Shown here one piece after another: positions 35,454 through 49,243 of a stretch of 49,243 bases of DNA (position 1 is its first letter; the number at the start of each line of letters is the position of its first letter). Made by a program: the position numbers and the translations under genes. Location of the stretch: the NCBI GenBank assembly GCA_002686465.1, contig NZCP01000057.1, positions 1 to 49,243 of the forward strand, written 5' to 3'. This DNA comes from Candidatus Woesebacteria bacterium (lineage in GTDB: Bacteria > Patescibacteriota > Microgenomatia > UBA8517 > UBA10165). Under the pieces are notes generated by a model. The model saw only the letters and a program-made list of their open reading frames with translations. It was not told where the DNA came from and made no database searches.

Positions 35454-35891
35454 ATGCGAATCCTTAATCGCCGTGCTCGACACGATTACCAAATTTTAGA
35501 GAGTTTTGAAGCAGGAGTCGCTCTAACCGGTGCAGAAGTAAAGTCAATAAAGGAAGGCAGAGCCGATCTTGGTGGGTCTTTTGCACAAATACGGGACGGT
35601 GAGGCCTGGCTTTTGGGTGCAAACATCCCTCTATATAAAGGGTCTTCTGGAGCTGCAGATTACGACCCTTTGCGCATTAGAAAACTCCTTGTACACCGAA
35701 AAGAAATAGTTTCACTGGAGACTAAAATCAAGCAAAAGAAATTGACTCTCGTGCCTATCTCGTTGTATACTAAAGGCCGACTAGTCAAGGTTAAAGTGGC
35801 CTTGGGTCGCGGCAAGAAAAAGTACGAAAAAAGGGACGCAAAGAGACAAAAGGATATACAAAGAGAGATCGAACGGGAGTTAAAAAACTAA
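35454..35891 (+). CDS. smpB: SsrA-binding protein
   Basis: 145 aa, with NRRARHDY, GAEVKS and the basic tail GRGKKKYEKRD. Confidence 0.9.
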   Translation: MRILNRRARHDYQILESFEAGVALTGAEVKSIKEGRADLGGSFAQIRDGEAWLLGANIPLYKGSSGAADYDPLRIRKLLVHRKEIVSLETKIKQKKLTLVPISLYTKGRLVKVKVALGRGKKKYEKRDAKRQKDIQREIERELKN

Positions 35892-36271
35892 GGGGATGAC
35901 AGGTTTCGACGGAATTGCACTTTGACACGTTGCAGGCCGAGTTTGGCTAAAACTCGAAAAACAGAGCCAAAACTTTTAACTGGCACGGGTAAATCCGTAG
36001 CTCCAGTTTATGGTAATGGTGTCGCTCCGGCGATGCTAGTAGCTTAACTGGCATCCGTATTGTGTGTTCCTGATCGCAAAATACTGGGTGTTAACCTAGT
36101 CAGGATGCTGCTGATAACCTAATCAGTATCAGCTCAAGACTTTGATTCTTGTAAACGCTAACACTTTTGCTTGTTGAGGATGTGTTTATAAGTAAAATTT
36201 TCAACAAACTAAGCTTGTAGATACGTACATTGTGTTTTTTTCGGACGAGGGTTCAAATCCCTCCATCTCCA
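35892..36271 (+). ncRNA. ssrA: tmRNA (ssrA)
   Basis: The 5' end GGGGATGACAGGTTTCGACGG pairs with the 3' end CATCTCC. A T-arm GAGGGTTCAAATCCCTC is present. The internal tag frame ...GKSVAPVYGNGVAPAMLVA ends in TAA. The gene sits directly after smpB. Confidence 0.85.
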
Positions 36272-36329
36272 CTCACAGGGCTCATGGATCTGGAGTGATT
36301 TGCCGACAAGTAAGGAAAATCTCACACAG

Positions 36330-38207
36330 CTACTGTAGCGCAATCTCCAAAATCTTTGTTTCGGTTAGAAGAAAAATCTTACCTACAGAGGTCGAAACTA
36401 CAAAATCTCGGGCTTCTGCAACCTCTTTTGTCTTGTATTGTTTTTTGTAATCTCCTTTTTTATCCACCTCAACTATTCTTCCTGCTGCACGATCCAGGAT
36501 AAACACGCTTTCCAAAGTTTCATCTGTGTAAAGAGCTTTTGGTTCAGCAAGATCTTCATCCATCCCTGAGATTGAAAATCTCTCAGGAGCCCCTCGTGTA
36601 AATTTACTAATTTTGCCGCTCGATGCCAAGATCCAAATTGACCCATCTATCGCTAAATCGACAGTATCTGTTAAGTCGGGCGTCACACCCTTGCCGAACC
36701 ACTTTTGCTTTGCCCCAAATCCATCATCAATTGCCGGATAACGCCAAATCTCTCCACTTTGCGAGACCAAATATAGATTCCCTCCAAAAGCTCCGATTTT
36801 TATTATTGCCCCCCAATCCTCATCTTCGTCAGCAATGGTATCTACTCCCCCACGCTTATCTACTTCAATTATTCCTCTGTCTCCGAAAGAGAAATAGCGC
36901 CCGCCGTACAGAGAAATCACCGAGGGTCTCCCTAGCTTTCCAGCGCCGGCAACAACTGTTGTCTCTTTATTCTCAGCAGAAATAGAAAAAATTCTATCCC
37001 CTGCGCGGTCCAAAACCGCCAAATCCTCTTCATGAAGTACGATTTCTGATGCAGCAACTCCAGAACGTACCAAGGACAGGTCGAGAAAAACTCCTGTTTG
37101 CGCCTCAACAAGCCCAAGTAATGTTGAAGTGTTATCTTCAATCCCTTTGATTAGTTCATCAAGCTGTGGGTCTTCAACCCCTTCACTCTTAAGAATGCCG
37201 GCAAGTTCCTTTGATTGCAAAAAAAGCTCCTTTGCTCGCAGGGAATCTATATCCTTTTGCAAAAGCGCGTCCTGATAGTCGTTTCGCGCCTGTGTCAAAC
37301 GATCTTCGTACGAAGATCGGTAGTTTAAAAGGTCTTTTTGTCGGGTTCCAAAAATAATACTAACAGAAAGAAGAAGTAGTAAAACAACGCCGATAAAAAC
37401 CGTAGTCCGACGAGAAGGACCAGTGTTATGTCTTATATGAATTTGCTTCTCTGGCAGTTTTGACGCAAGAAAATGAATTCGGTTTTTTATAAAGCCGGGA
37501 AATACGCTTTTTAAACCTAAAATCTTCTCGACAACCACTTTTCCCTTGTCTAAAGGTGGCAATTCATCTGTGTGACCCTCATCTCTTTCTTGCCCTATTC
37601 TGACCAGACCGGCTGCTGCTAACACGTCATCTCTTTTATGCACTTGAGCAACCAAACTGTCGGCCACATCCTGAAACTGCGAATCTGACAAAATATCCCC
37701 CAAAGACGCAGGGGGAACAGCTTGAAAAAAACCTTCTGTTCCAAACAGGAAAATGTCGCCCACTTGCGGTGTTCCAGAAAGTGATACCACATCCTGACCA
37801 CTGCCAGACAACAACTGTATCAGCTTTCCATCGCGCTTGAGATAAACCGACCCTCGTCCTAAAATGCAAAAATACGCATAATTGCCCCAAATTACCAAGG
37901 CAGCAATTTCCACGCCAAGCAAGGGAAATTCTTGGGAGACACGAACAAGAGAGGATTTAAGGCGATCAAAAGGTGAACCTTCTGTTTTGCCAAAATACTC
38001 CTCATGGAGCCTCGTTAAAACCTCACGCCCAATTTCTACAGACCCGGTTTCCTTTTCAACTGCCTCCTCACCACCCTTGAGTGCAATCGCTGCGACAATT
38101 TCGCCGTGTTCTTGCTTTTTGTCTTCGTCTTGTGGAGAAAAACTATGGACTTGTGTCCACATCTGGCCATGGTTTGCACCGACAATTTTGGCAGTGGCAG
38201 CATGCAT
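36330..38207 (-). CDS. Large membrane protein: degenerate PP2C-like N-domain, one TM segment, and a C-terminal beta-propeller-like repeat region
   Basis: 625 aa. The N-domain follows the PP2C fold pattern (GRGSVYLKRDGKLIQL, GDIFLFGTEGF) but lacks the usual Asp ligands. The C-terminal half has about six G-x-I/V blade-like repeats. Confidence 0.45.
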   Translation of the reverse strand: MHAATAKIVGANHGQMWTQVHSFSPQDEDKKQEHGEIVAAIALKGGEEAVEKETGSVEIGREVLTRLHEEYFGKTEGSPFDRLKSSLVRVSQEFPLLGVEIAALVIWGNYAYFCILGRGSVYLKRDGKLIQLLSGSGQDVVSLSGTPQVGDIFLFGTEGFFQAVPPASLGDILSDSQFQDVADSLVAQVHKRDDVLAAAGLVRIGQERDEGHTDELPPLDKGKVVVEKILGLKSVFPGFIKNRIHFLASKLPEKQIHIRHNTGPSRRTTVFIGVVLLLLLSVSIIFGTRQKDLLNYRSSYEDRLTQARNDYQDALLQKDIDSLRAKELFLQSKELAGILKSEGVEDPQLDELIKGIEDNTSTLLGLVEAQTGVFLDLSLVRSGVAASEIVLHEEDLAVLDRAGDRIFSISAENKETTVVAGAGKLGRPSVISLYGGRYFSFGDRGIIEVDKRGGVDTIADEDEDWGAIIKIGAFGGNLYLVSQSGEIWRYPAIDDGFGAKQKWFGKGVTPDLTDTVDLAIDGSIWILASSGKISKFTRGAPERFSISGMDEDLAEPKALYTDETLESVFILDRAAGRIVEVDKKGDYKKQYKTKEVAEARDFVVSTSVGKIFLLTETKILEIALQ

Positions 38208-38211
38208 TTTC

Positions 38212-38442
38212 TTAGAGAGTTAGTAACGCCAGTAAAAATACACCTATTGCTACAAACATGTGGATCCAAGCAATCGACTTCACCGGCAACTCGACTCCCA
38301 CTTGAAGAGTGGAAGTCATAAGATGAACTTGGCGCACAACAACAGCAGCAAAAACAAGGTAGACCAAAAGACCAACCAAAAACAAAATCTTCACCAAAAA
38401 CCAAATAGTGCTTTCCGGTATAATTGTCTCAAGCCCCAACAT
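38212..38442 (-). CDS. Small two-TM membrane protein (76 aa)
   Basis: A TAATG overlap with the upstream gene supports translation. Confidence 0.4.
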   Translation of the reverse strand: MLGLETIIPESTIWFLVKILFLVGLLVYLVFAAVVVRQVHLMTSTLQVGVELPVKSIAWIHMFVAIGVFLLALLTL

Positions 38443-39152
38443 TAAGATGTCTCCTTTTGCGGAACTTTGTGCTCAGTGTGTGTTCGCAGCTCTTGCAAAA
38501 CTCCAGAAACTCTTACTGGGGACGGGACAAGGTTAAACACAATATTAGGCGAGGCACCAGCGGTTTGTATTTGCACATCCCCATAGTTGAAGACCGTACC
38601 TCCAATACCTCCAACTCTTCGGGTAACATCTTGGATTTTATCGATCCTTGCCTCAGAGATCTCTCGATGAATAATGTTGTGGAAATCCACATCTATAACT
38701 CTTTTTTCTGTAATTATATAGACACTGAAAAACCAAGAAAGCGTCTCTTCCAGAATAAAAGCGGTCGTTATCAAATACCAAAAAAGTACCGCAATAAACT
38801 GAAATCTCCCAGGCAAGAAAGAAAGTATAGGGAACCAGGTAAATAAAAGTGGTGCTAAAGCTAAACCGGTCGCGATAAGTACCCAAGTAATATTTGTAAC
38901 TAGATGTCTTCGCAAAAGAAGAACAACTCTTTCTTGTGGTTCCTGGTTTACGAAACACACATTTTCTGGCCTGTAGGCATATGTTGCTAGTGGATTATGT
39001 GTATGACCGGGGTCTTTGCGCAACTCACTCTCAGGCTCAACTTGCGCCACTGGTCTTTGTTCGTCTTTTTGCTCCAGTTCGTCTGACACAGTCTCTTTGT
39101 GTTCTTCTTTCTGCTTGTTTCTTTTATTTTGTGCAACGTATAGGTCTACCAT
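38442..39152 (-). CDS. Bacterial PH-domain (bPH_2/YdbT-like) membrane protein
   Basis: 236 aa. An acidic N-terminus and two TM segments are followed by EKRVIDVDFHNIIHREISEARIDKIQDV....GDVQIQTAG. An extended -10 (TGATAGAAT) lies upstream. Confidence 0.6.
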   Translation of the reverse strand: MVDLYVAQNKRNKQKEEHKETVSDELEQKDEQRPVAQVEPESELRKDPGHTHNPLATYAYRPENVCFVNQEPQERVVLLLRRHLVTNITWVLIATGLALAPLLFTWFPILSFLPGRFQFIAVLFWYLITTAFILEETLSWFFSVYIITEKRVIDVDFHNIIHREISEARIDKIQDVTRRVGGIGGTVFNYGDVQIQTAGASPNIVFNLVPSPVRVSGVLQELRTHTEHKVPQKETS

Positions 39153-39268: not shown

Positions 39269-40990
39269 TCAATTTGTACGCACAACATTAAACAATGTGC
39301 TTTTGACACCAATATAGCCCGGTGCACGCAAATTAAAGGCTTTTTTAAACTCTTCTCCTGATATTGAAGTCGACCCCTTATTTGTAGAGAAAGTGACCTG
39401 AATTGTTGAACCGTCGTTACCGTAAACAACAGATGCGGAAGAAACGTTTGTGTATCCGCCAATGGAGGCAAGTTCCGAGGATGAATATGGATTGCCTTGC
39501 CAACAACCAGTGTCGGTTGGCGAAACCCTTGATACGTCTCCACCTCCTTTGTAAAGAACGTGCCAGGCATTCAACACATCCGCCATCTCCGATGTTGTCA
39601 ACCAGGGATTCCCCATACCACAACTTTTACCCGAACGAGTTTTATACCAAGCTTTATAAAACCAGGGCGACTCGGAAACTTTCTCATAAGCTTGGTTTGG
39701 CCAATCACCATCTTTTGCATCTTTTATTCCATTCCAACCCCACTTAGAAAGTGTAAATCCTCCAGACGTCGAGGCATAATAAGTTTTTGCCGGACTTCCC
39801 CCTCGGGTTAAGACCCAACCACGAGTTTGCTGTACCGCCTCTTTCCACTTCCCACTTTTCAGCTGGGGTTTATAAACTTGGCAGGATTCTGTAGGACAAA
39901 TAGTTCCTTGTCCATTATTTGTAACAGCAAGAGCGTACGTTCTTGCGGCAACAGCTTGTGCCTTTAGAGCTTCAAACCCACCTTTGTCACCCCAAGATTC
40001 TGGAACCTCATAAATCCCCAAAAGATAGTTATCCTCAAAAGGTAGAGATCCGTAACCTGAGACATTTATACTCCCTGGGACAGAATATCCTTTATTAAGA
40101 TCTGCTCCTTGGTAGTAAGCAGAAAGAATAGATTCTGCATTCTGGCCTGACTTTGCCCTTCCATAAGCTCCAAATTGGCTCATACCTGCTCTGTGTGGAG
40201 CTCCAAAGGAAAAGACTGCAAAGCCGCCGAACCCAGGATCGCAATAGTTTGAAGATCCTGGGGGACCAGAACAAGGGTCAAGGGTTGGGGGAGTTTCTCC
40301 GATGGATGTCTGAAAACCACCGGCTTTCTGAGCAAGGAGTTGCTGTTGTTTTGCACTTAGGCTGCTTATATAAGACTCAACTTTCTCGACTTCGCCTGCA
40401 AGGAAAGTTGCACGCGAGTCAACCTCGGCTTGTACCCGTTTTAGTCCCGCACGGCTATTTTCCAAAGTCTTTTTGTCATCTTTCAGACCAATAATTTTTT
40501 CCGCTAAATCCTCAATTGTTCTTCTGTCCTCGGTTGCTGCTTGCTCGCGTAGCACCAACTCGCGTGTAAACTCAGTTGCTGATGCTGTCGAGAGAAAAAC
40601 CACAATAGGAGAATACTGCCGACTTCGTATATAAAATTCTCGGATTCGCTCCTCCAAAAGTTCTTGTTGAAGTACAAGGTCTTCCTCCCGCCCACGGATG
40701 TCAGCAGCAAGGGCGTTTGCTTGACGGGTCAAGTTAGCAATCTGGCCTTGAATAGATTTCAGCTGTTTCCTAAGACCCGAGAGCTCTTCTTGGTTCTGTT
40801 CATGCGCCGGTGTTAAGGCACTAACCTCGCGCTCAATTTCTGCAATACATGTATCAAGTTTATGAAAAGGGATCGAAGACGCAGCACATTCTCCGGAGAG
40901 TGCAGAAACGGGAGTAAGAGTAACAAGTAACAGGTAACAAGTAACAAGAACAAAAAATGGTTTTGACATTTGAGTTTTGAGTTTTGACAT
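39269..40990 (-). CDS. SpoIID/LytB-domain peptidoglycan-remodelling protein with an N-terminal coiled coil
   Basis: 573 aa. A signal peptide and a long coiled coil are followed by the SpoIID signature LKAQAVAARTYAL and YASTSGG. Confidence 0.75.
   Translation of the reverse strand: MSKLKTQMSKPFFVLVTCYLLLVTLTPVSALSGECAASSIPFHKLDTCIAEIEREVSALTPAHEQNQEELSGLRKQLKSIQGQIANLTRQANALAADIRGREEDLVLQQELLEERIREFYIRSRQYSPIVVFLSTASATEFTRELVLREQAATEDRRTIEDLAEKIIGLKDDKKTLENSRAGLKRVQAEVDSRATFLAGEVEKVESYISSLSAKQQQLLAQKAGGFQTSIGETPPTLDPCSGPPGSSNYCDPGFGGFAVFSFGAPHRAGMSQFGAYGRAKSGQNAESILSAYYQGADLNKGYSVPGSINVSGYGSLPFEDNYLLGIYEVPESWGDKGGFEALKAQAVAARTYALAVTNNGQGTICPTESCQVYKPQLKSGKWKEAVQQTRGWVLTRGGSPAKTYYASTSGGFTLSKWGWNGIKDAKDGDWPNQAYEKVSESPWFYKAWYKTRSGKSCGMGNPWLTTSEMADVLNAWHVLYKGGGDVSRVSPTDTGCWQGNPYSSSELASIGGYTNVSSASVVYGNDGSTIQVTFSTNKGSTSISGEEFKKAFNLRAPGYIGVKSTLFNVVRTN
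40923..40960. repeat. Heptamer array (minus-strand reading: ttgttac ttgttac ctgttac ttgttac) inside the signal-peptide codons of the SpoIID-like gene
   Basis: Read directly. It encodes FFVLVTCYLLLVTLT. Confidence 0.6.
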
Positions 40991-41060: not shown

Positions 41061-42182
41061 ATGAAGAAGTTTTTATTATCGCTCTGTTCTATCCTCCTAG
41101 TAGGATTATTTCTCTTCCCACAAAAAGTAGGTGCGATTGACACCTGCGAGCAATTCTCGATGTCACCTTCTCCGCTAAAGGCCAGCGAGGATTTTGTAGA
41201 GTTTACAGTTGGTCCTGTTAAGGGGGAGCGGCTTGATGAGAGCCGGCGTTATGAAATCCGTGTTGACTTACACGCCAGCGTCACTGGTGCCTGCCGAGAC
41301 GTCAGAAGTGGCTTTCTTACTCCCAAGCCAGGCTCATCTACAATCTCGCACAAATTTGCAAAAGATGCGGGCCTTCTGAATACATGTAACCCGCACCTGT
41401 TTTTCCCAAACTACCGAAGAAGTGTATTTTTATGGGCGGAGGGTGCAGACGGCGCCAGGTGTGTCGCGCCATCTATATACCGCGCCGTTTCTGATTGCAA
41501 ACTTACTCTTGTAACAACAAAGCTGGACATAAATAGCCCAGTTACAATAAAAGGAGAGAAGCTTCCAAATATACGCGAGAACGGTGGTATGCTGCAAATC
41601 ACAGCAAGAGGATTTCGCCGAGACGTGCATGATATTAATATAAGCGCCGATGACCTCTCCTTCGAAGTAACAACTGGGCCACTGCCCTCCACAGGCGCAT
41701 ACCAAGTAGAACTGCGGGGCTACCAACTATCCTGGTTGCTCAGGCAGGACGACATTTTGGGATCTACAACTGAACCCACTCATTGCCCTGCACTTCCCTT
41801 TGGAGTGGGGACCGAAGAACAGCCAGTTGACAACACTCCAGGAGGAGATGGACCAACTGGCCCAATCACATTTTTTGGATTAGAGTACTGCGATACCAAT
41901 AAAACCCAGCTACGAACAGCTGTTGGTTGTATCCCATTCACTGGTGCCAACGAATTTGTTAAATGGTTTCTCGGATGGGCAATTGGAATTGCTAGCGGAA
42001 TTGCATTCTTGCTAATCATCTTCGCAGGGTTCAAAATAATGACTGCGTCCGGGAATCCTGAGAAACTACAAGATGGTCGAGAGCTTTTGATAGCGGCAAT
42101 TTCGGGATTGATACTTATAGTTTTCTCTGTATTCCTGTTAAAATTAATCGGGGTCACGATTTTCCAAATTCCGGGATTCTAA
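41061..42182 (+). CDS. Large pilin-domain protein: signal peptide, a roughly 290-aa Cys-containing ectodomain, and a C-terminal TrbC/VirB2-type pilin hairpin
   Basis: The start is taken at MKKFLLSLCSILLVGLFLF (the track ORF starts at a GTG at 41007). The C-terminus FAGFKIMTASGNPEKLQDGRELLIAAISGLILIVF is flanked by two TM helices. Confidence 0.55.
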   Translation: MKKFLLSLCSILLVGLFLFPQKVGAIDTCEQFSMSPSPLKASEDFVEFTVGPVKGERLDESRRYEIRVDLHASVTGACRDVRSGFLTPKPGSSTISHKFAKDAGLLNTCNPHLFFPNYRRSVFLWAEGADGARCVAPSIYRAVSDCKLTLVTTKLDINSPVTIKGEKLPNIRENGGMLQITARGFRRDVHDINISADDLSFEVTTGPLPSTGAYQVELRGYQLSWLLRQDDILGSTTEPTHCPALPFGVGTEEQPVDNTPGGDGPTGPITFFGLEYCDTNKTQLRTAVGCIPFTGANEFVKWFLGWAIGIASGIAFLLIIFAGFKIMTASGNPEKLQDGRELLIAAISGLILIVFSVFLLKLIGVTIFQIPGF

Positions 42183-42191
42183 AAACTACTA

Positions 42192-42827
42192 ATGAGAAGA
42201 GTAAAACTATCACTATTCACCCTACCCCTTGTCTATCTACTTGGCCTGATCGCTAGCGTGCTGGGGATATTCAATACTAATGTTTATGCAACACACCTTT
42301 ACCCAGAATGTGACCCTCATCAAATTCGAAGCCTTGAGCCAACTGCTACCGGGTTAATCGATCCGGACCATTGCCCTCCGATAAAGACTTGTTATGTTAA
42401 ATACCCAGCAGGCGATGATCTTACAGGGGCGGGACAAAACCTTTATAGTTGCTACTCTGTGATCATAGAACTACCTAGTCTAACCCCTAGTCCAGCAGCC
42501 CCCCGTACCCCTGGCGCAGTCGACTTCCCTACAATCGAGCAAGCCTTACCCGAGTTCAAATTTACAAACAGCTCCGTCAGCGATATTTTCAATGACATAA
42601 TCCCTTACCTTTTTGGTATCGCAGGGTTAATTCTCCTGCTTTATCTAATCTGGGGCGGGTTTGGATTGATGGTTTCCCGGGGAGATCCAAAAGCAGTTGA
42701 GGCGGCAAAAGAGAAAATTACGAGTGCGCTAATTGGATTTGTGATTATCTTTGTCGCCTTCTGGCTAGTACAGCTTTTAGGACTAATATTTGGAATAAGT
42801 CAGTTTGAAAGCGTATTTGGAAAGTAA
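42192..42827 (+). CDS. Pilin-domain protein with a roughly 110-aa Cys-containing ectodomain
   Basis: 211 aa with a signal peptide. The C-terminus is IWGGFGLMVSRGDPKAVEAAKEKITSALIGFVIIF, lying between two TM helices. Confidence 0.55.
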   Translation: MRRVKLSLFTLPLVYLLGLIASVLGIFNTNVYATHLYPECDPHQIRSLEPTATGLIDPDHCPPIKTCYVKYPAGDDLTGAGQNLYSCYSVIIELPSLTPSPAAPRTPGAVDFPTIEQALPEFKFTNSSVSDIFNDIIPYLFGIAGLILLLYLIWGGFGLMVSRGDPKAVEAAKEKITSALIGFVIIFVAFWLVQLLGLIFGISQFESVFGK

Positions 42828-42850
42828 CTTGTAACTTGTTAACTCGTGAC
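42822..42850. repeat. Heptamer array (aagtaac ttgtaac ttgttaac tcgtgac) spanning the pilin stop and the four-helix-bundle gene start
   Basis: Read directly. Inverted GTTAC words occur at 43226-43255, on the other side of the four-helix-bundle gene. Confidence 0.6.
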
Positions 42851-43220
42851 CGGTAAACTAAAAGAAGGCATTCCTGGTTATCAAAAATTAATTGCTTGGG
42901 AAAAGGCAGACTTACTCGCAAAAGCGATCTACAAAACAGCCCCACTGTTCCCAAAACACGAACTATATGGATTAACTTCTCAATTACGACGTGCGACACT
43001 GTCTGTGGTCCTTAATATCATCGAGGGCCATGCTCGTCAAAACAGAAACGAGTTTCGTCAATTCCTGAAGATAGCATATAGTTCATTGGCAGAAACCGAA
43101 TACTTGCTGGATTTCGCTAGAGAACAAAACTATCTTACAGCTAGTAAGTTTGAAGAACTTGAAAGCCTAAGAAAAGACTGTGGACAAGTACTCTGGAGGC
43201 TTTTAAAGTCACAACTCTAA
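42846..43220 (+). CDS. Four-helix-bundle protein (23S rRNA intervening-sequence protein / Avd-like family)
   Basis: 124 aa with a GTG start. YQKLIAWEKA..LAKAIY......FPK.ELYGLTSQLRRA..SV..NI.EG is the family pattern. Confidence 0.75.
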   Translation: MTGKLKEGIPGYQKLIAWEKADLLAKAIYKTAPLFPKHELYGLTSQLRRATLSVVLNIIEGHARQNRNEFRQFLKIAYSSLAETEYLLDFAREQNYLTASKFEELESLRKDCGQVLWRLLKSQL

Positions 43221-43996
43221 CGAGTTACTACGCTACGAGCCTTCGATGTTACTTTGCCGACATAGTCGGCAATTCTTCCTCCACCAAACCTTCTTGTGCG
43301 TTTGGAATAATTCTCAAGGATTTTGTCAAATTTGCTTGGTGAAAAATCAGGCCAGAGGGTTTTTGTAAAATAAAGCTCCGAGTAAATAGTCTGCCAAGGA
43401 AAATACCCAGAGAGACGAAGATTACCTCCCGTTCTTATTACCAAATCTGGGTCTGGCATCCCTGCAGTATCCAGAAGACCAGCAAACTCCTTCTCTGTAA
43501 CAGATGCCTTAAGTGAGCGTTTATGTGCTCTAATTTTTTGAATAAGTCTAGATACTGCCCGAAGTATCTCTTCTCTTCCTCCGTAATTTATAGCAAATGA
43601 GACTGTTATTTTCCCATTATCCTTTGTACGTCGAACAGTAGATTTCGTTAGTTTTGCAATATCACGCGGAAACCAGTTAATGTCTCCCACTATCTGAATC
43701 TTGACTCCTAGCTTTTCTAGCTCAAAAAGGTTGGTTTTTAGAGCTTCCCGAAAAATATTAAAAAGCCCTCTGAGTTCTGCTTTGTCTCTACTTCTGTTTT
43801 CTGAGGAAAATGCCCAAAAAGTCAGATATTCAACACCTCTTTTTATGGCCCTTTTAACAATGGGTTTGATTGTTTTTTCTGCACCAATCCTATGCCCGTC
43901 AACTGGGCCCAACGACCTTTTCGCCGCCCAACGTCTATTCCCATCCATAATAATGGCAATATGTTTTGGAGAATTCCCGTTCATTTTAGGAGCCAT
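43217..43996 (-). CDS. uppS: Undecaprenyl-diphosphate synthase (isoprenyl transferase)
   Basis: 259 aa, with HIAIIMDGNRRWA, FSSENRSR and RTGG..RLSGYFPWQ. Confidence 0.9.
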   Translation of the reverse strand: MAPKMNGNSPKHIAIIMDGNRRWAAKRSLGPVDGHRIGAEKTIKPIVKRAIKRGVEYLTFWAFSSENRSRDKAELRGLFNIFREALKTNLFELEKLGVKIQIVGDINWFPRDIAKLTKSTVRRTKDNGKITVSFAINYGGREEILRAVSRLIQKIRAHKRSLKASVTEKEFAGLLDTAGMPDPDLVIRTGGNLRLSGYFPWQTIYSELYFTKTLWPDFSPSKFDKILENYSKRTRRFGGGRIADYVGKVTSKARSVVTR

Positions 43997-44092
43997 AAAA
44001 CTTAATCCCGAGTGTGGAATTTTATCATAACCAGCGTTGTAGCTGCAAGAAATTTGCGAAGGAGGGAGTAGTCTTGATACACTAACCTATAT

Positions 44093-44434
44093 ATGTTCCT
44101 GTACGTTGTTACCCATGTCTACGCCGAAGTTGATATTGAAGATAAGTTCGGTGCACCTTTTGCAGAAGTGAAGGATGTAGGAACACTCGTGTCAATAGTT
44201 GTTTCCAACTTATATATCCTGGCCGGTGTAATTCTTCTCATTGTATTAATTTTCGGGGGGTTTAGCATAATCGCCGGTAGCGGACAGAATAACCCTGAGC
44301 AGGCAGCACAAGGAAAAAAGGCGGCGACAATGGCAGCTGTTGGCTTCTTGATAATCTTTGCCTCATATTGGATAATCAAAATAATCGAATTGCTAACAGG
44401 ATTCAAAATCTTAGAAGGTAAACTAAACCCGTAA
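44093..44434 (+). CDS. TrbC/VirB2-type T4SS pilin-like protein
   Basis: 113 aa. FGGFSIIAGSGQNNPEQAAQGKKAATMAAVGFLIIF lies between two TM helices. The N-terminal signal segment is unusually short (MFLYVVTHVYA). Confidence 0.55.
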   Translation: MFLYVVTHVYAEVDIEDKFGAPFAEVKDVGTLVSIVVSNLYILAGVILLIVLIFGGFSIIAGSGQNNPEQAAQGKKAATMAAVGFLIIFASYWIIKIIELLTGFKILEGKLNP

Positions 44435-44784
44435 TGGAAAATCTCTTGGCGCAAAACCCATTTGGCGCAGTTTCCCCTCCTCCAGGAGTTGAGGCACACG
44501 GCGGTGGTCCTGGCGGAATAATTAACCTTCTCAACGTTGTACTACGACTTCTCATTGCAATTGGAGGAATTTATGCGTTAGTAAATATCATCATTGCAGG
44601 ATATCAATTTATATCCGCAGGTGGAGATCCAAAAAATATCGAAAACGCCTGGGGGAAAATCTGGCAAAGTCTTTTGGGATTACTTATCATTGCCGCATCA
44701 TTTATAATCGCAGCAGTGATTAGCCAACTCATATTTGGTAAAGCAGACGCGATTCTTAATCCACAAGTCTACACACCAAAATGA
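44434..44784 (+). CDS. TrbC/VirB2-type T4SS pilin-like protein
   Basis: 116 aa, with IAGYQFISAGGDPKNIENAWGKIWQSLLGLLIIA. It has a TAATG overlap with the previous gene. Confidence 0.6.
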   Translation: MENLLAQNPFGAVSPPPGVEAHGGGPGGIINLLNVVLRLLIAIGGIYALVNIIIAGYQFISAGGDPKNIENAWGKIWQSLLGLLIIAASFIIAAVISQLIFGKADAILNPQVYTPK

Positions 44785-45161
44785 TCTCATTTATTGCACA
44801 AAACCCAACACCACTTTCTGCAACACCAATCAGCGGTATTGGTCCCTTAGGCGGTGTAGATCCAAGTCGGGCCCCTGAAATTTTCGCAGGCACTATCTCA
44901 AGAATCATCGGAGTATTAACAGTGGTTGCCATCCTTTGGTTTGTTTTCCAAATCATAATTGGCGCCTACGGGTGGATTAGCGCCGGAGGAGATGCAAAAA
45001 GCGTTGAGGCAGCCCGAAGTCGAATTACAAATGCAGTTATTGGTCTAATAGTTGTTTTCGTCGCTCTAATATTTGTTTCGGTTATTGGGTTTTTGCTGGG
45101 AATAGGCAATATTCTCGATATCGGCACATTCATCAATAATTTAACACCTGGAACAAACTAG
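44781..45161 (+). CDS. TrbC/VirB2-type T4SS pilin-like protein
   Basis: 126 aa, with IGAYGWISAGGDAKSVEAARSRITNAVIGLIVVF. It has an ATGA overlap with the previous gene. Confidence 0.6.
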   Translation: MISFIAQNPTPLSATPISGIGPLGGVDPSRAPEIFAGTISRIIGVLTVVAILWFVFQIIIGAYGWISAGGDAKSVEAARSRITNAVIGLIVVFVALIFVSVIGFLLGIGNILDIGTFINNLTPGTN

Positions 45162-45165
45162 TCCT

Positions 45166-45678
45166 ATGAAACATTTATTTAAGACAATTCTTTTGGCAAG
45201 CTTCGTCCTTTTCGCAATGGCACTTGCTGCCCACCCTGCTTTTGCACAATCTGCGACCGAGGGAGAATGTATTACAGCAACACCTGGGTGCACTAAATGT
45301 GATGAGTCCTTTGGGAGATGGACTTGTGTTGAATGGGACTCTTCTGGGGGTACTCTAACCAACCCAATAGCGCCAAACTTAAGCCCGCAAACTGGACCAG
45401 AAGGAGTGCAATTGTTCAGCAGTTTGGTACAAACTCTTGTTAGCACCCTCATCGTGGTTGCTGCTGTTGTCTTTTTCTTCTTTTTCATGATTGGTGCTAT
45501 CCGCTGGATTGTGTCTGGAGGAGATAAAGCGCAAATAGAGTCTGCTCGCGGAACAATAGTCAATGCCCTAGTCGGTCTTGTTATTGCCTTCTCGCTTTTT
45601 GCGGTGCTTAAACTCCTGGAGACAATCTTTGGAATAGACTTACTAGAAATCAATCTTGGGCCACTAGTGGTGAAATAA
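45166..45678 (+). CDS. TrbC/VirB2-type T4SS pilin-like protein with a Cys-rich mature N-terminus
   Basis: 170 aa. The signal peptide ends AFAQS, followed by CITATPGCTKCDESFGRWTC and then IGAIRWIVSGGDKAQIESARGTIVNALVGLVIAF. Confidence 0.6.
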   Translation: MKHLFKTILLASFVLFAMALAAHPAFAQSATEGECITATPGCTKCDESFGRWTCVEWDSSGGTLTNPIAPNLSPQTGPEGVQLFSSLVQTLVSTLIVVAAVVFFFFFMIGAIRWIVSGGDKAQIESARGTIVNALVGLVIAFSLFAVLKLLETIFGIDLLEINLGPLVVK

Positions 45679-45755
45679 ACCTCCAAGGAAATCACTGCTT
45701 GACTTGACAACTGGTTTTGTGTGTATTATCGTTAAAGGGAGGTGATAGAAAATAA

Positions 45756-46169
45756 ATGAGAAAAGTTTTTAGTTCATTAGGAGCAAGTGCGATGGCTTTG
45801 GCCTCTTCGGCATTGCCTGTTTTTGGTGCGTCACCGACACCAGCTATCAAGCTACAAAAAGGCGGCGATATAAAGACCAACCCCCTTTTCAACCTTGAAG
45901 AACTCACAATAGCTGGCTTAGTCTCAGGACTCATACGTATAGCGGTCATTGCTGCTGCTGTTATCTTCTTTTTCTGGTTGATACTTGGAGGGATCAGATG
46001 GATTCTCTCTGGAGGAGACAAGACAAAGACAGAAGAAGCACGAGCGCAAATTACTGCAGCTCTAATCGGATTGGTTATAGTGTTCTCGGCTTGGGCAATT
46101 ACCCAACTTTTGAGAACTCTGTTCGGCTTCGATTTGTTCAATCTTTCTATTGCACAAATTGGAAATTAA
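45756..46169 (+). CDS. TrbC/VirB2-type T4SS pilin-like protein
   Basis: 137 aa with the strong SD GGGAGGTGA and a signal peptide. The pilin motif is LGGIRWILSGGDKTKTEEARAQITAALIGLVIVF. Confidence 0.6.
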   Translation: MRKVFSSLGASAMALASSALPVFGASPTPAIKLQKGGDIKTNPLFNLEELTIAGLVSGLIRIAVIAAAVIFFFWLILGGIRWILSGGDKTKTEEARAQITAALIGLVIVFSAWAITQLLRTLFGFDLFNLSIAQIGN

Positions 46170-46184
46170 TAGACCTCAAGGGAC

Positions 46185-46212
46185 TTGACCGGTTATAGCT
46201 TCTGAGTATACA
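46185..46212 (+). promoter_or_regulatory. Promoter TTGACC-16 nt-TATACA upstream of the last pilin gene
   Basis: The -10 ends 9 nt before the GTG at 46222. Confidence 0.35.
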
Positions 46213-46221
46213 CTTGAGATT

Positions 46222-46608
46222 GTGGGAACAATTTCAGCCCTCCGAAAGCTTGTTGGTGCATCCATAGGTAGTGGGTTGCTGATGCACTTGCTTACACGCT
46301 CAGCCTTTGCCCAAAGAGGGGTACAAGATGGTGTTGCCACGTTTGAATTTGCCGAAGTAGTTTTTGAAAATGTACTTTTAGTCATCTTTGCGTTTGCCGC
46401 AATAGTCCTTTTTATAATGTTCTTAATTGGCGGCTTCCGCTACCTCACATCAGGGGGCGACCCTAAAGCGGTAGAGGGAGCAAAAGGAACGCTCACGCAC
46501 GCAATTGCCGGACTCGTCGTTTTAGTTCTTGCCTTTATCATCCTTAAATTGATTGAAACAATAACAGGTGTTGATGTCACAACGTTCAAAGTAATACACA
46601 ACCCTTAA
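46222..46608 (+). CDS. TrbC/VirB2-type T4SS pilin-like protein
   Basis: 128 aa with a GTG start. The signal peptide ends SAFAQRG. The pilin motif is IGGFRYLTSGGDPKAVEGAKGTLTHAIAGLVVLV. Confidence 0.6.
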   Translation: MGTISALRKLVGASIGSGLLMHLLTRSAFAQRGVQDGVATFEFAEVVFENVLLVIFAFAAIVLFIMFLIGGFRYLTSGGDPKAVEGAKGTLTHAIAGLVVLVLAFIILKLIETITGVDVTTFKVIHNP

Positions 46609-46623
46609 GAAATTGGAAAGACT

Positions 46624-47715
46624 ATGTTTCTGCCCACCGCCCCATTTCGTATGTTAAATAATATTTTTCTCAAGCCTGGTTTACTTGTCGCCTGCTTGCC
46701 CGCTATAGCTTTAGCGGCGGCGGGGTACTTTTTGCTTTTGTTTCTCCCGTCTTCTGCACACGCAACAGTGGTAGACTTCTCCCCTTCTGCTATTCCTGGT
46801 GAGACAATTAAAATCGAGGCGAAGATTGGATCAAACCGTTCTATAGATGGAAAAATCGGTCCAAAGGACCTTGTCGCCCCGGATATATCCAAGCCTACAA
46901 AGGTCCTCCTTGATGAAGAAGTTTTTCAAAGACTCTTACCTTCCGGAAACTCATATACTCCTCCGGTTGATTCAGGAACTAAAATTGAGGGGCAGATCGC
47001 TCATGTTACTTGTGGAAAAACCAGAGGAGGGAGAACTTATCCGAGGATTGACCCAGAAACAGGATTGCAGGTCATAGATCCGATCACAGGAGAAGGTATA
47101 GAAGATCCAGCTCACGAAGAAGACGACAAAGCTAAGATAACTTCAAGTCCGGTCAAATTCGACGCGCCAAAAGATTGGGAAACAACCATCCTCGGAACTC
47201 GTGTCCTTCAGGCATTCTTTGTCCCTGGATACGGATCAGGTCTAACCCCCAGTGCCACCAATGAAACATTTTTCCCAAAAGTTCCCGACCGACTGAATGA
47301 TTGCCCAGAAGAAGCAGGTGGTGTACCGGCACCGTCAAAAGGAGTGGCCCATGAAGAGCCAAAGGCATTTGACCCGTTTGGAGATTTTGTTGGTGCAATC
47401 GAAAACCTTTTCGACGCGTTGTTTAGTCGCAAGGTTACAGTTGAAGCAAACATACAACAACTTAAGTATCTGCCTGGTGAAGAGGCGCTAGAAAGACAAA
47501 CGGTTGGAGATACTGGTTTCCTAAATGCCTTTTTCCCGTCTACTGTTCTAGGTGAAAGTGACACACAAAAAGAGGTGGTTGATTATCAGGTTTTGAACGA
47601 CGGTGACAGAAAAGTTGGGGTAAGCTACTCAGGAACAAAGGGGTTTTATGAAAAAACAGGCAAGCTTTTGGATTCCATGTACCCATCAACTTTCGATCCT
47701 GATATCGACTATTAG
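46624..47715 (+). CDS. Hypothetical membrane-anchored/secreted protein in the pilin cluster
   Basis: 363 aa with an N-terminal TM/signal segment (LLVACLPAIALAAAGYFLLLFL). No family was recognised. Confidence 0.5.
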   Translation: MFLPTAPFRMLNNIFLKPGLLVACLPAIALAAAGYFLLLFLPSSAHATVVDFSPSAIPGETIKIEAKIGSNRSIDGKIGPKDLVAPDISKPTKVLLDEEVFQRLLPSGNSYTPPVDSGTKIEGQIAHVTCGKTRGGRTYPRIDPETGLQVIDPITGEGIEDPAHEEDDKAKITSSPVKFDAPKDWETTILGTRVLQAFFVPGYGSGLTPSATNETFFPKVPDRLNDCPEEAGGVPAPSKGVAHEEPKAFDPFGDFVGAIENLFDALFSRKVTVEANIQQLKYLPGEEALERQTVGDTGFLNAFFPSTVLGESDTQKEVVDYQVLNDGDRKVGVSYSGTKGFYEKTGKLLDSMYPSTFDPDIDY

Positions 47716-47791
47716 AGTCTAGAGAGAAAAGCAAACGTGTTATAATCAAAGAAATTAAAAACTATTAACTAAACAGCCACAGAATATTCAA

Positions 47792-49243
47792 ATGCGAACA
47801 CTACTAAGACAAAGACTTGCCCGCCTAATTATCCCCGTGCTTCTTGCGATTTATATGCCGATCATTGCTTTGGCAACAACAGGCGCTTTACTTTTTACAA
47901 CAGCTGCTCCGGCCCAGGCTGCTACCCAACCCCTATACACCACCACCCTTGGTGAATGGTGGTCTGGGTTAAAGGGAAAAGAATACAACAAGCAGGTCTT
48001 CGACTTCCAAAGTCTGATCGGCGTACTAGCGGGTCTGGCCACCATGCTTCTTGGGTGTACAGACGAGACGGTGTGTCCTTCTGACCTTGAGGAAGGAGCA
48101 ATCCATACAACAACAACTGTTATTGCGGGACTCTACGCAAGTCCACCTGCGTCTGGTGTTTATTACGCTGCCAATATCGGCGAACGGTTGCGCCTTGTCA
48201 AACCGGCCTACGCCCAGGACAGCACCACTGGGTTCAAGGTACTAGGACCATTCCTAAACGTCTGGCGTGCTGTGCGTAATCTTACCTATATACTTTTTGT
48301 AGTCGGCATAGTCGGCTTAGGACTCGCAATTATGTTCCGCGCGAAAATTTCTCCCCAGGCGGTAATCACAATTCAATCGGCTCTTCCCCGAGCCATCATT
48401 GCCCTTTTGCTAATCACCTTCTCATATGCAATTATCGGTTTCCTGATCGACATTATGTATCTTATCTTCGGGTTGTTGGTGTGGGGACTAAGCACCAATG
48501 AGCTAGTATATAACGACAAAGCAGCTGGAGACTATTTTTTGGAATTCACAAACGCCGGGTTTCCCCAAACCCTAAGCTTTATAGTAACCAAGGGTTTTGA
48601 GGGCATGGCGGATGTGGTGACGGGTATCCCCGAATCCATAGCCCCAGAGATGTCAGGAGGACTTGCTGGTATTGCGGGAGATATACTATCAATAGTAATA
48701 CCCGCAGGGGTTGCCATAGTTGCCGGCACAGCGATGATACCAATCGTCGTCGGTCTCGCCATCGCTATAATTGCTTTCTTTATCCGTGTGCTCTTCATTC
48801 TAGCAAAGGCATATTTGCTCCTTTTGCTCTACTTAATATTCGGTCCAATTTTAATATTATGGGCAGCATTGTCTGGAAAGGGCGTTTGGGAAGGATGGCT
48901 GAAAGGAGTTCTAGCAAACCTCCTTGTCTTTCTTTTTATAGGAGTTATTATCTTTCTCGTCGAACTACTTATAGCACAAATTAACACAGCGGATTCCGGG
49001 ATTTGGGGTCCACCTTATATTGGCCAGAACCCTCAGATTATAAAGGGGATAATCGCTCTTGGGGGAGTAATGTTGCTGGTAACAGTCCCGGACATCATAA
49101 ATCAAATCCTTGACCTGAGGCAAGTCCCTCTCCAGACCCCAGGAGGCGACAGACAAGCAGAAAGAATAGGAGAGGGTTTGGGAGGCGGCATCAAATCACG
49201 CTTCACTCGTGAAGGCGGAGGGGATATCAAACAAACCGGCAAG
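47792..49243 (+). CDS. Polytopic membrane protein, VirB6/TrbL-like (partial; runs off the right edge)
   Basis: Manual translation from the ATG at 47792 stays open for 484 codons to the window end. It starts MRTLLRQRLARLIIPVLLAIYMPIIALA. A signal/TM segment and a roughly 90-aa loop are followed by at least 5 TM helices (ITFSYAIIGFLIDIMYLIFGLL, AKAYLLLLLYLIFGPILILW). It is absent from the ORF track because it is open-ended. Confidence 0.5.
   Translation, partial: MRTLLRQRLARLIIPVLLAIYMPIIALATTGALLFTTAAPAQAATQPLYTTTLGEWWSGLKGKEYNKQVFDFQSLIGVLAGLATMLLGCTDETVCPSDLEEGAIHTTTTVIAGLYASPPASGVYYAANIGERLRLVKPAYAQDSTTGFKVLGPFLNVWRAVRNLTYILFVVGIVGLGLAIMFRAKISPQAVITIQSALPRAIIALLLITFSYAIIGFLIDIMYLIFGLLVWGLSTNELVYNDKAAGDYFLEFTNAGFPQTLSFIVTKGFEGMADVVTGIPESIAPEMSGGLAGIAGDILSIVIPAGVAIVAGTAMIPIVVGLAIAIIAFFIRVLFILAKAYLLLLLYLIFGPILILWAALSGKGVWEGWLKGVLANLLVFLFIGVIIFLVELLIAQINTADSGIWGPPYIGQNPQIIKGIIALGGVMLLVTVPDIINQILDLRQVPLQTPGGDRQAERIGEGLGGGIKSRFTREGGGDIKQTGK

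Follow-up and report, generated by a model that had tools for sequence, protein, structure and literature searches.

Why should a reduced bacterium carry, within a few kilobases of its chromosome, not one pilin gene but eight, and are these copies of one another or parts of one machine? The question is raised by a 49,243-nucleotide stretch of DNA from a Candidatus Woesebacteria bacterium (contig NZCP01000057.1 of assembly GCA_002686465.1, positions 1 to 49,243), which we call the window. Its last 8 kb (41,061 to 49,243) hold eight open reading frames (ORFs) with VirB2/TrbC-type pilin domains, followed by a gene for a secreted protein and a gene for a polytopic membrane protein. Our answer, to which we assign a probability of roughly 0.72, is that the region codes for the extracellular and membrane parts of a chromosomal type IV secretion system (T4SS) of the patescibacterial kind, in its Microgenomatia form, and that the eight pilins are fixed, non-interchangeable components of it. 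The locus is a new example of the published multi-pilin T4SS and not a new kind of organelle. An earlier note on this DNA had already proposed a T4SS-like surface apparatus, and we refer to its claims where our results bear on them.

The features of the region are given below in window coordinates. Pilin positions are counted upstream from the polytopic gene, −1 being the nearest to it, and scores refer to the Pfam models PF18895 (T4SS_pilin, curated gathering cut-off 26.6 bits) and PF04956 (TrbC/VirB2, 27.9 bits) unless another model is named.

41061..42182, + strand: long accessory pilin, position −8; PF18895 29.4 bits; Sec-type leader, Cys-containing extracellular domain of about 270 residues, C-terminal hairpin
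42192..42827, + strand: accessory pilin of 211 residues, position −7; PF18895 48.8 bits, PF04956 28.3 bits; leader, Cys-containing N-terminal part; own orthogroup in 10 loci
42846..43220, + strand: gene for a 23S-rRNA-intervening-sequence protein (IVP); PF05635 111 bits; interrupts the array
43217..43996, − strand: undecaprenyl-diphosphate synthase gene uppS, a housekeeping gene; PF01255 235 bits; lies between the accessory pair and the core array
44093..44434, + strand: core pilin, position −6; PF18895 33.0 bits; orthogroup in 34 loci, 30 at position −6
44434..44784, + strand: core pilin, position −5; PF18895 25.0 bits, below the cut-off; TAATG overlap with the preceding gene; no Sec-type leader; orthogroup in 34 loci
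44781..45161, + strand: core pilin, position −4; PF18895 30.3 bits; ATGA overlap with the preceding gene; no Sec-type leader; orthogroup in 34 loci
45166..45678, + strand: core pilin, position −3; PF18895 24.8 bits, below the cut-off; leader ending AFA-Q, Cys-rich N-terminal part; orthogroup in 33 loci
45704..45732, + strand: promoter-like site TTGACA-17-TATCGT ahead of the position −2 pilin; GGAGG and then about 18 nt precede the start codon
45756..46169, + strand: core pilin, position −2; PF18895 37.3 bits; orthogroup in 35 loci, 34 of 37 members at position −2
46222..46608, + strand: core pilin, position −1; PF18895 37.3 bits; GTG start, leader ending AFA-Q
46624..47715, + strand: fast-evolving secreted or membrane-anchored protein of 363 residues; no Pfam match; N-terminal hydrophobic segment
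47792..49243, + strand: complete polytopic membrane protein of 484 residues; about seven transmembrane helices; candidate VirB6-type platform

All eight pilin-domain ORFs lie on the plus strand where the earlier note had placed them, and PF18895 matches every one of them over the C-terminal 60–70 residues, six at or above the cut-off (29.4–48.8 bits). The position −7 pilin also passes PF04956, and two further ORFs match that model below threshold. Eight same-strand matches to one family in 5.5 kb are far above chance. This comparison with both profiles, which the earlier note had proposed as a check, bears out its identification, and on sequence grounds the assignment of the eight ORFs to the VirB2/TrbC pilin superfamily is supported. 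Their shared architecture is a hydrophobic helix, a loop of the form SGGD(P)Kxx(E)xA(K/R) and a second hydrophobic helix; our alignment yields the consensus ..GGF..I.SGGDPK..E.AR..IT.AL.GLVIIF, reproducing the one reported earlier. The proposed two-helix hairpin also stands: hydropathy profiles give two hydrophobic segments with a short polar loop between them in all eight, and the AlphaFold2 model of the first ORF has helices at 294–328 and 333–368 joined by a turn, with a predicted local distance difference test score (pLDDT) of 83–93. For the N-terminal domain of about 270 residues in the same protein no usable model was obtained (pLDDT below 50, from an alignment of seven paralogues only). 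Two parts of the original description need amending. A signal-peptide-like N-terminus had been ascribed to all eight ORFs, but no more than five or six have a clear Sec-type leader; it is lacking in the 44434 and 44781 products and is short and rudimentary in that of 44093. Likewise, the eight genes do share a strand, but the array is not continuous, being interrupted at 42846–43996 by the IVP gene and the minus-strand uppS.

The paralogues in the window are only 16–46% identical to each other (mean 27%, over the last 105 residues), and their relationships are best read from other loci. We aligned 66 homologues of the 484-residue polytopic protein and searched species-representative genomes with the alignment; at least 566 stretches matched, and 80 related loci were retrieved, in which pilins were found with a model built from the window's own pilin domains. 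Most loci with enough upstream DNA carry six or eight same-strand pilin ORFs directly upstream of the polytopic-family gene. Among 42 complete arrays, 28 are uninterrupted runs of exactly six genes, and in 12 loci the pilins number eight altogether; copy number, which the earlier note had suggested comparing among relatives, is thus essentially fixed at six or eight. For positions −1 to −6, the best cross-locus match falls at the same position in 98, 94, 40, 62, 72 and 70% of cases, respectively, −1 being the most position-faithful and −3 being confused with its nearest paralogue, −2 (46% identity in the window). The median score is 79.7 bits between pilins that share a position in different loci and 49.3 bits between different positions within one locus. 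When 232 pilins from 35 loci are clustered by reciprocal best hits, exactly eight communities result, six represented in 33–35 loci and two in 10, and each has one dominant position and contains exactly one pilin of the window. The orthogroup of the position −8 pilin, for example, occurs in 10 loci, in eight of them at that position. Each position also has its own conserved signature, such as AWxKIWQSLLGL at position −5, which is present in the 44434–44784 product. At the DNA level, the only repeats in the window are 61–75% identical over 76 nt among three paralogues.

Position-specific orthology, the conserved layout and the low DNA-level identity together argue against recent amplification or switching. 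On these comparisons, the eight pilins are not recent duplicates but a six-gene core plus a two-gene accessory pair. We favour the reading that they form a fixed set of co-expressed, non-redundant subunits, which agrees with the essentiality scores of individual pilins in Southlakia epibionticum (S. epibionticum) discussed below. A limited literature search found no statement of this positional orthology.

The cytoplasmic part of the system can be seen in the relatives. In close relatives, the gene order runs from a pilin pair through six pilins, a variable secreted protein, the polytopic protein and a convergently encoded large protein to one to three small genes, a PrgI-like protein (about 350 residues), a VirB4-like ATPase (about 840 residues) and another large protein, which in locus L014 carries a CHAP hydrolase domain. 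The PrgI/VirB3-like and VirB4-like genes lie 2–6 kb past the polytopic gene in L003–L005, L007, L010, L014 and L064, and up to about 9 kb past it in the Gottesmanbacteria loci L026, L035 and L051. The PrgI match in L014 scores 28.6 bits against a cut-off of 27, while the VirB4-like protein of L003 matches P-loop_TraG (E 7e-34) and AAA_10 (E 9e-11), with weaker TraC and CagE_TrbE_VirB matches. The earlier proposal that the cluster belongs to a T4SS is supported by the presence of these genes 2–9 kb downstream in syntenic relatives. The locus also has the marks by which patescibacterial T4SSs have been described (PMC12102498): chromosomal flanks, an array whose eight pilins fall within the range of 2–11, and no relaxase-type domain in the scanned ORFs.

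The second membrane component is the polytopic protein, which had been thought to continue past the window; in the source scaffold a stop codon follows directly after the window end, so the protein is complete at 484 residues. Its AlphaFold2 model (pLDDT 80.2) has an N-terminal anchor, a conserved Cys-containing extracytoplasmic region (residues 38–150) and about six further membrane helices arranged around a variable loop, making about seven in all. In the family alignment four polar residues are invariant (S121, R162, S211 and D220). The architecture is one expected of VirB6 proteins, which are polytopic with at least five transmembrane helices and a large extracytoplasmic region and are encoded together with T4SS genes; in most related loci that keep enough upstream DNA the gene directly follows the pilin array. 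In a Foldseek search of the PDB, the two top matches are chains of the R388 VirB6 protein TrwI (8rtd_L and 8rt9_F; probability 0.99, E 0.019 and 0.057), two further TrwI chains follow at probabilities of 0.57 and 0.38, and every other match is at 0.12 or below. Three of the 66 members match, weakly, each of two NCBIfam families of membrane proteins from Mollicutes integrative and conjugative elements (E about 1e-3), which is a weak hint only. The family itself is large and unannotated, with 7,937 representative clusters at E ≤ 1e-3, 2,905 of them at E ≤ 1e-30. On the basis of fold and gene context, we regard the 484-residue protein as probably the functional VirB6 of Microgenomatia, and do not class it as a member of the TrbL/VirB6 family. 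The earlier VirB6/TrbL-like label survives in a restricted sense: the weak TrwI fold match and the gene context speak for it, but none of the sequence-level tests supports it.

Several observations count against our reading of the locus. There is no VirB4, PrgI or coupling protein on this scaffold (the window plus the remaining 3 kb), and the look downstream for T4SS ATPases that the earlier note had proposed, naming their absence from the contig as a ground for giving up its reading, found none. We ascribe this absence to the contig ending too early and not to a lack of the genes; the scaffold stops about 2 kb short of the position expected for the prgI-like gene. The link to VirB4 and PrgI runs through synteny in relatives whose polytopic protein is only 27–50% identical to that of the window. 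Two of the pilins, those encoded at 44434–44784 (25.0 bits) and 45166–45678 (24.8 bits), are just below the PF18895 cut-off (E about 2e-5); both belong to position-specific orthogroups common to other loci. A profile comparison with Agrobacterium VirB2 alone (pTiC58, taken from NC_003065) aligns the correct hairpin region with a non-significant probability of only 3%. As for VirB6, neither the 484-residue protein nor any of its 66 homologues matches the Pfam TrbL/VirB6 model (PF04610), NCBIfam TrbL/VirB6 models likewise give no match, and hhalign assigns probabilities of 0.2 against Agrobacterium VirB6 and 0.05 against a 25-sequence VirB6 alignment. The TrwI fold match is itself weak, with TM-scores of 0.26–0.27 (query) and 0.40–0.42 (target) and a root-mean-square deviation of 10–14 Å. 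Finally, polar effects along the operon could account for part of the essentiality of single pilins in S. epibionticum, and no filament has yet been reported for any patescibacterium (PMC12857230).

The alternative that survives best concerns the polytopic protein, which may be no VirB6 homologue at all but a lineage-specific membrane protein, acting for example in pilin processing or insertion, or in transport. This seems to us unlikely, if far from negligible. No TrbL/VirB6, PrgH or PDB similarity is found at the profile level: a PDB profile search with the family gave no match, and hhalign against PrgH of pCF10 gave a probability of 0.16, a weak test as PrgH was entered as a single sequence. 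The Foldseek E-values and TM-scores given above (the latter at most 0.42) are weak, and the four invariant polar residues could mark a catalytic or binding site. However, VirB6 proteins are the sole fold matches above background, the gene is constantly adjacent to pilin arrays, and in S. epibionticum a gene that is VirB6-like at the level of fold also adjoins the six pilins. In addition, the scarcity of recognisable VirB6 reported for Microgenomatia (PMC12102498) is a gap that this family would fill, and the few members resembling the Mollicutes conjugative-element proteins point in the same direction.

With the 484-residue protein as a putative VirB6, the apparatus might work as follows. The pilins would be inserted in the membrane as two-helix hairpins, from which they would be extracted by the VirB4 ATPase, anchored by the PrgI/VirB3-like protein (both encoded a few kilobases downstream in relatives). 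The extracted pilins would then be assembled on the VirB6-like platform into a pilus-like or conduit structure touching the host cell. The eight would be made together, as a six-gene core cassette and an accessory pair of fixed, non-interchangeable subunits and not as alternative variants, and the long first pilin and the variable secreted protein would be the candidates for contact with the host.

Part of this scheme would fail if the hairpin proteins stayed in the membrane as a ring or channel of a T4SS, or of some other envelope complex, with no extracellular pilus. The T4SSs of monoderms are normally without pili (PMC12857230), none has been visualised as a filament in this phylum, several of the core pilins have no recognisable cleavable leader, and membrane rings, too, are typically made of differentiated subunits in a fixed set. 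We nevertheless consider this improbable, given the family membership with TrbC/VirB2 pilins, the extracytoplasmic domain of about 270 residues behind the Sec leader of the first pilin, which suits a displayed structure, and the resemblance of the candidate platform to the VirB6 stalk base that supports pilus building.

A similarly low probability, fractionally lower still, attaches to the idea of antigenic or host-range variation, with the paralogues as alternative pilins deployed singly or according to conditions, as proposed for Bartonella Trw and Anaplasma VirB2. Low identity within the array would be expected in that case, promoter-like hexamers precede positions −2 and −1 (45704–45732 and 46185–46214), and the N-terminal domain of the first pilin and the downstream secreted protein are highly variable; host-range versatility is also the reason for such arrays suggested by the authors of the phylum-wide survey (PMC12102498). 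Yet each core paralogue has its position-specific orthologue across 33–35 deeply diverged loci with an essentially fixed copy number, no recombination-prone DNA repeats were found in the window, and all six pilins of S. epibionticum were scored essential. Four genes are translationally coupled and therefore made together: as the earlier note had it, they are coupled or tightly packed, overlapping by TAATG at 44434 and by ATGA at 44781, with 4 and 9 nt separating neighbours elsewhere. Among the reasons for multiplicity that the note had listed, antigenic and host-range variation are thus disfavoured by position-specific orthology, and mixed filaments are favoured.

That the cluster belongs to a mobile element, conjugative or integrative, which transfers DNA can be dismissed as very improbable: VirB2, VirB6 and VirB4 are ancestrally conjugation genes, but the flanks are ordinary chromosomal genes (DnaG, RpoD, DEAD-box helicase, UppS, ComF-like, tmRNA, six tRNAs, SPFH, ZIP and SIS, with apparent glycolysis genes), G+C is even over the window (0.40–0.47), synteny with chromosomal neighbours is kept in relatives, Pfam scans of the window and of neighbouring genes in the sampled relatives found neither a relaxase nor a coupling protein nor an integrase, and relaxases are reported to be absent from most patescibacterial T4SS clusters.

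Returning to the fixed set of subunits, a stronger version can be put forward tentatively, at somewhat less than even odds: that all eight pilins co-assemble into one heteromeric T4SS surface structure and that the 484-residue family is the scarce Microgenomatia VirB6, diverged beyond sequence recognition. If true, a heteromeric eight-pilin structure would be without precedent among VirB2-based pili. Type IV pili and the pseudopili of type II secretion offer an analogy, as they employ a fixed set of pilin paralogues that are encoded together and have diverged into distinct structural roles, larger members located at the tip among them; their fold and assembly machinery are unrelated to those of VirB2-type pilins.

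Spacing of the genes gives a hint as to how the subunits may differ in amount. Across 33 loci the gaps are 2–3 nt before positions −5 to −3, which are translationally coupled, and 50–70 nt before −2 and −1; the spacer before −2 (45704–45755 in the window) has a median length of 71 nt, is conserved in these loci, and carries a Shine–Dalgarno-like motif in 42% of them, as against 0–12% before the other positions. The earlier note had credited the more loosely spaced genes with their own promoter-like elements and strong Shine–Dalgarno sequences; the promoter-like hexamers are there before −2 and −1, but a clear GGAGG is found only at 45756. The spacer and motif suggest separate, stronger translation of the position −2 paralogue, and we take 45756–46169 to be the best candidate for the major subunit, because it is the only gene in this array with a strong ribosome-binding site.

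The 363-residue protein encoded between the array and the platform gene evolves fast. A database search for homologues returned only the protein itself (the public gene call starts later and gives 354 residues), and its only detectable relatives among the fetched loci are proteins of 480–534 residues in L003–L005, to whose N-terminal 330 or so residues it aligns and which are longer by 120–170 residues. The same slot is occupied by a protein of 268–1588 residues in 36 loci. Its position and variability make the 363-residue protein a candidate host-contact component.

How does this arrangement compare with known systems? The earlier note had called eight paralogues unusual, and in this respect it has been overtaken by published work: 441 VirB2 arrays of 2–11 genes, with about 25% identity within an array, have been described in 383 patescibacterial assemblies, with Microgenomatia and Saccharimonadia particularly rich in them (Quinonero-Coronel et al. 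2025, PMC12102498). In S. epibionticum, six consecutive PF18895 genes (SEML1_0014–0019) were each scored growth-defective and then essential; SEML1_0013, which adjoins them, encodes a protein of 1,088 residues that is VirB6-like only by fold, and PrgI and VirB4-like DUF87 proteins are encoded near (Wang et al., PMC10633639 supplement). A 2025 review regards patescibacterial T4SSs as unique among those of monoderms in their potential to elaborate pili (PMC12857230). The present locus shares with SEML1_0013–0019 and the other patescibacterial arrays the tandem, divergent PF18895 pilins on the chromosome of an ultra-small monoderm, and with S. epibionticum in particular the run of six pilins beside a fold-only VirB6-like protein, the nearby PrgI and VirB4 (here in relatives), and the lack of a relaxase. 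It differs in that a conserved accessory pair, one member of which has a large extracellular domain, is added to the six-gene core; in that the polytopic protein is shorter and encoded on the same strand as the pilins, whereas the gene for the S. epibionticum protein is divergent; in the variable secreted protein inserted between array and platform gene; and in the convergent gene and others that separate VirB4 from the array in relatives.

Systems outside the phylum agree with the locus in part. With the diderm systems Agrobacterium VirB and R388 Trw (MPF-T) it has in common the VirB2/TrbC-superfamily hairpin, a polytopic protein whose best fold match is TrwI/VirB6, and a secreted protein encoded between pilin and VirB6-like genes, as VirB5 precedes VirB6, although there is no evidence of VirB5 likeness in the 363-residue protein. 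Unlike our locus, those systems have a single pilin gene and an outer-membrane core of VirB7, VirB9 and VirB10, which a monoderm does not need, and sequence-level similarity to VirB6, or to VirB2 on its own, is lacking. In the Prg/Pcf system of Enterococcus pCF10 (MPF-FATA, monoderms), the order prgI-prgJ-prgK is that of the PrgI-like, VirB4-like and CHAP-hydrolase genes of the relatives, and it is from the MPF-FATA class that the patescibacterial VirB4 clade reportedly descends. However, pCF10 has LPXTG adhesins and no pilins, is plasmid-borne with a relaxase and a coupling protein, and its PrgH has no detectable similarity to the 484-residue family. Bartonella Trw and Anaplasma VirB2 do resemble the locus in that a host-dependent bacterium carries a tandem series of VirB2 paralogues within a single T4SS locus; those arrays are described as lineage-specific amplifications tied to variation (cited in PMC12102498), whereas here we find ancient position-specific orthogroups in fixed copy number.

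A few neighbouring genes deserve mention. The IVP gene at 42846 probably lies outside the apparatus and looks like a small mobile or selfish gene: such genes (PF05635, with a weak bAvd-like match) occur in 20 copies in 14 loci at varying places, one of them inside the pilin array of L003 (6745–7137). The bAvd-like match raised the idea of a diversity-generating retroelement acting on the pilins, which we rejected, as there is no template/variable repeat pair and no reverse transcriptase in the scanned ORFs; the 42846 gene scores far better as 23S_rRNA_IVP than as bAvd. The uppS gene also sits between accessory pair and core array in L004 and L007.

Divergently from the first pilin, a 573-residue SpoIID-domain protein (peptidoglycan remodelling) is encoded at 39269–40990 (− strand), with 38442–39152, 38212–38442 and 36330–38207 beside it on the same strand. 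The SpoIID gene is kept in 5–12 related loci together with genes for a 236-residue membrane protein, a DUF5657 protein (in fewest loci) and an uncharacterised protein of about 600 residues, and by analogy its product might supply the cell-wall hydrolase role of VirB1.

On the other side, 55 of 75 loci have a large gene next to the polytopic one and convergent with it, encoding 500–1400 residues; here it encodes 782 residues (L001 11529–13877, − strand, equivalent to window coordinates 49320–51668). Its position is conserved and its sequence hypervariable, the copy next to the window having two relatives after three profile iterations. The proteins are highly charged and without an N-terminal hydrophobic segment, some have a C-terminal hydrophobic tail, and they could be cytoplasmic partners or substrates of the T4SS. 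The 782-residue protein was considered as a hidden ATPase and rejected, there being no Walker A motif in 56 proteins at that position and no Pfam match; a 625-residue upstream protein, considered for the same role, likewise has no Pfam match.

The window corresponds almost base for base to the TARA Oceans scaffold TARA_SAMEA2619974_METAG-scaffold_471 (ENA ERZ2773065, 52,296 bp), with four mismatches in an 11,452-nt overlap. Three of these are within the last four bases of the window, where 49240–49242 read CAA and L001 11449–11451 read AGG (G at 49243 being identical), so that the last codon specifies K rather than the G of the public scaffold, probably an artefact of end-trimming or assembly version. 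Metaclust assigns a fragment of one scaffold protein to station 37, mesopelagic, 0.1–0.22 µm fraction. Because the nearest homologues of the region's proteins are from Candidatus Blackburnbacteria, Microgenomates, and Gottesman-, Shapiro-, Curtiss-, Woese- and Daviesbacteria, the organism is, by this measure, a Microgenomatia-type patescibacterium (candidate phyla radiation), which bears out the earlier impression of a reduced bacterium. Many of the contigs of L002–L081 are titled "uncultured Gammaproteobacteria" or "Pseudomonadales", and one "Woesearchaeota"; since they carry a Microgenomatia-type locus, these public labels are unreliable. Elsewhere in the window, six tRNA genes lie between 21.9 and 34.3 kb and a tmRNA gene (35892–36274, 129 bits) directly follows a 145-residue ORF that is SmpB-like by eye (region 35454–36274). 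Cumulative GC skew falls steadily to about 42–44 kb and is then flat, coinciding with a switch of gene strand from minus to plus at about 41 kb; the turn could fit reports that T4SS genes of Patescibacteria lie near the replication origin, but neither dnaA nor dnaN is in view.

No T4SS other than the patescibacterial one has been shown to be essential for the growth of its bearer, and among monoderm T4SSs it alone has pilins. The pilin array itself was already known, and what we add is modest: positional orthology and a candidate VirB6 family. The first makes pilin multiplicity look like a conserved multi-subunit design rather than a means of variation, and the second offers, in a large unannotated membrane-protein family, an obvious candidate for the VirB6 that surveys have missed in Microgenomatia. 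Both points are testable, and both would give direction to structural studies and help to annotate genomes in their thousands.

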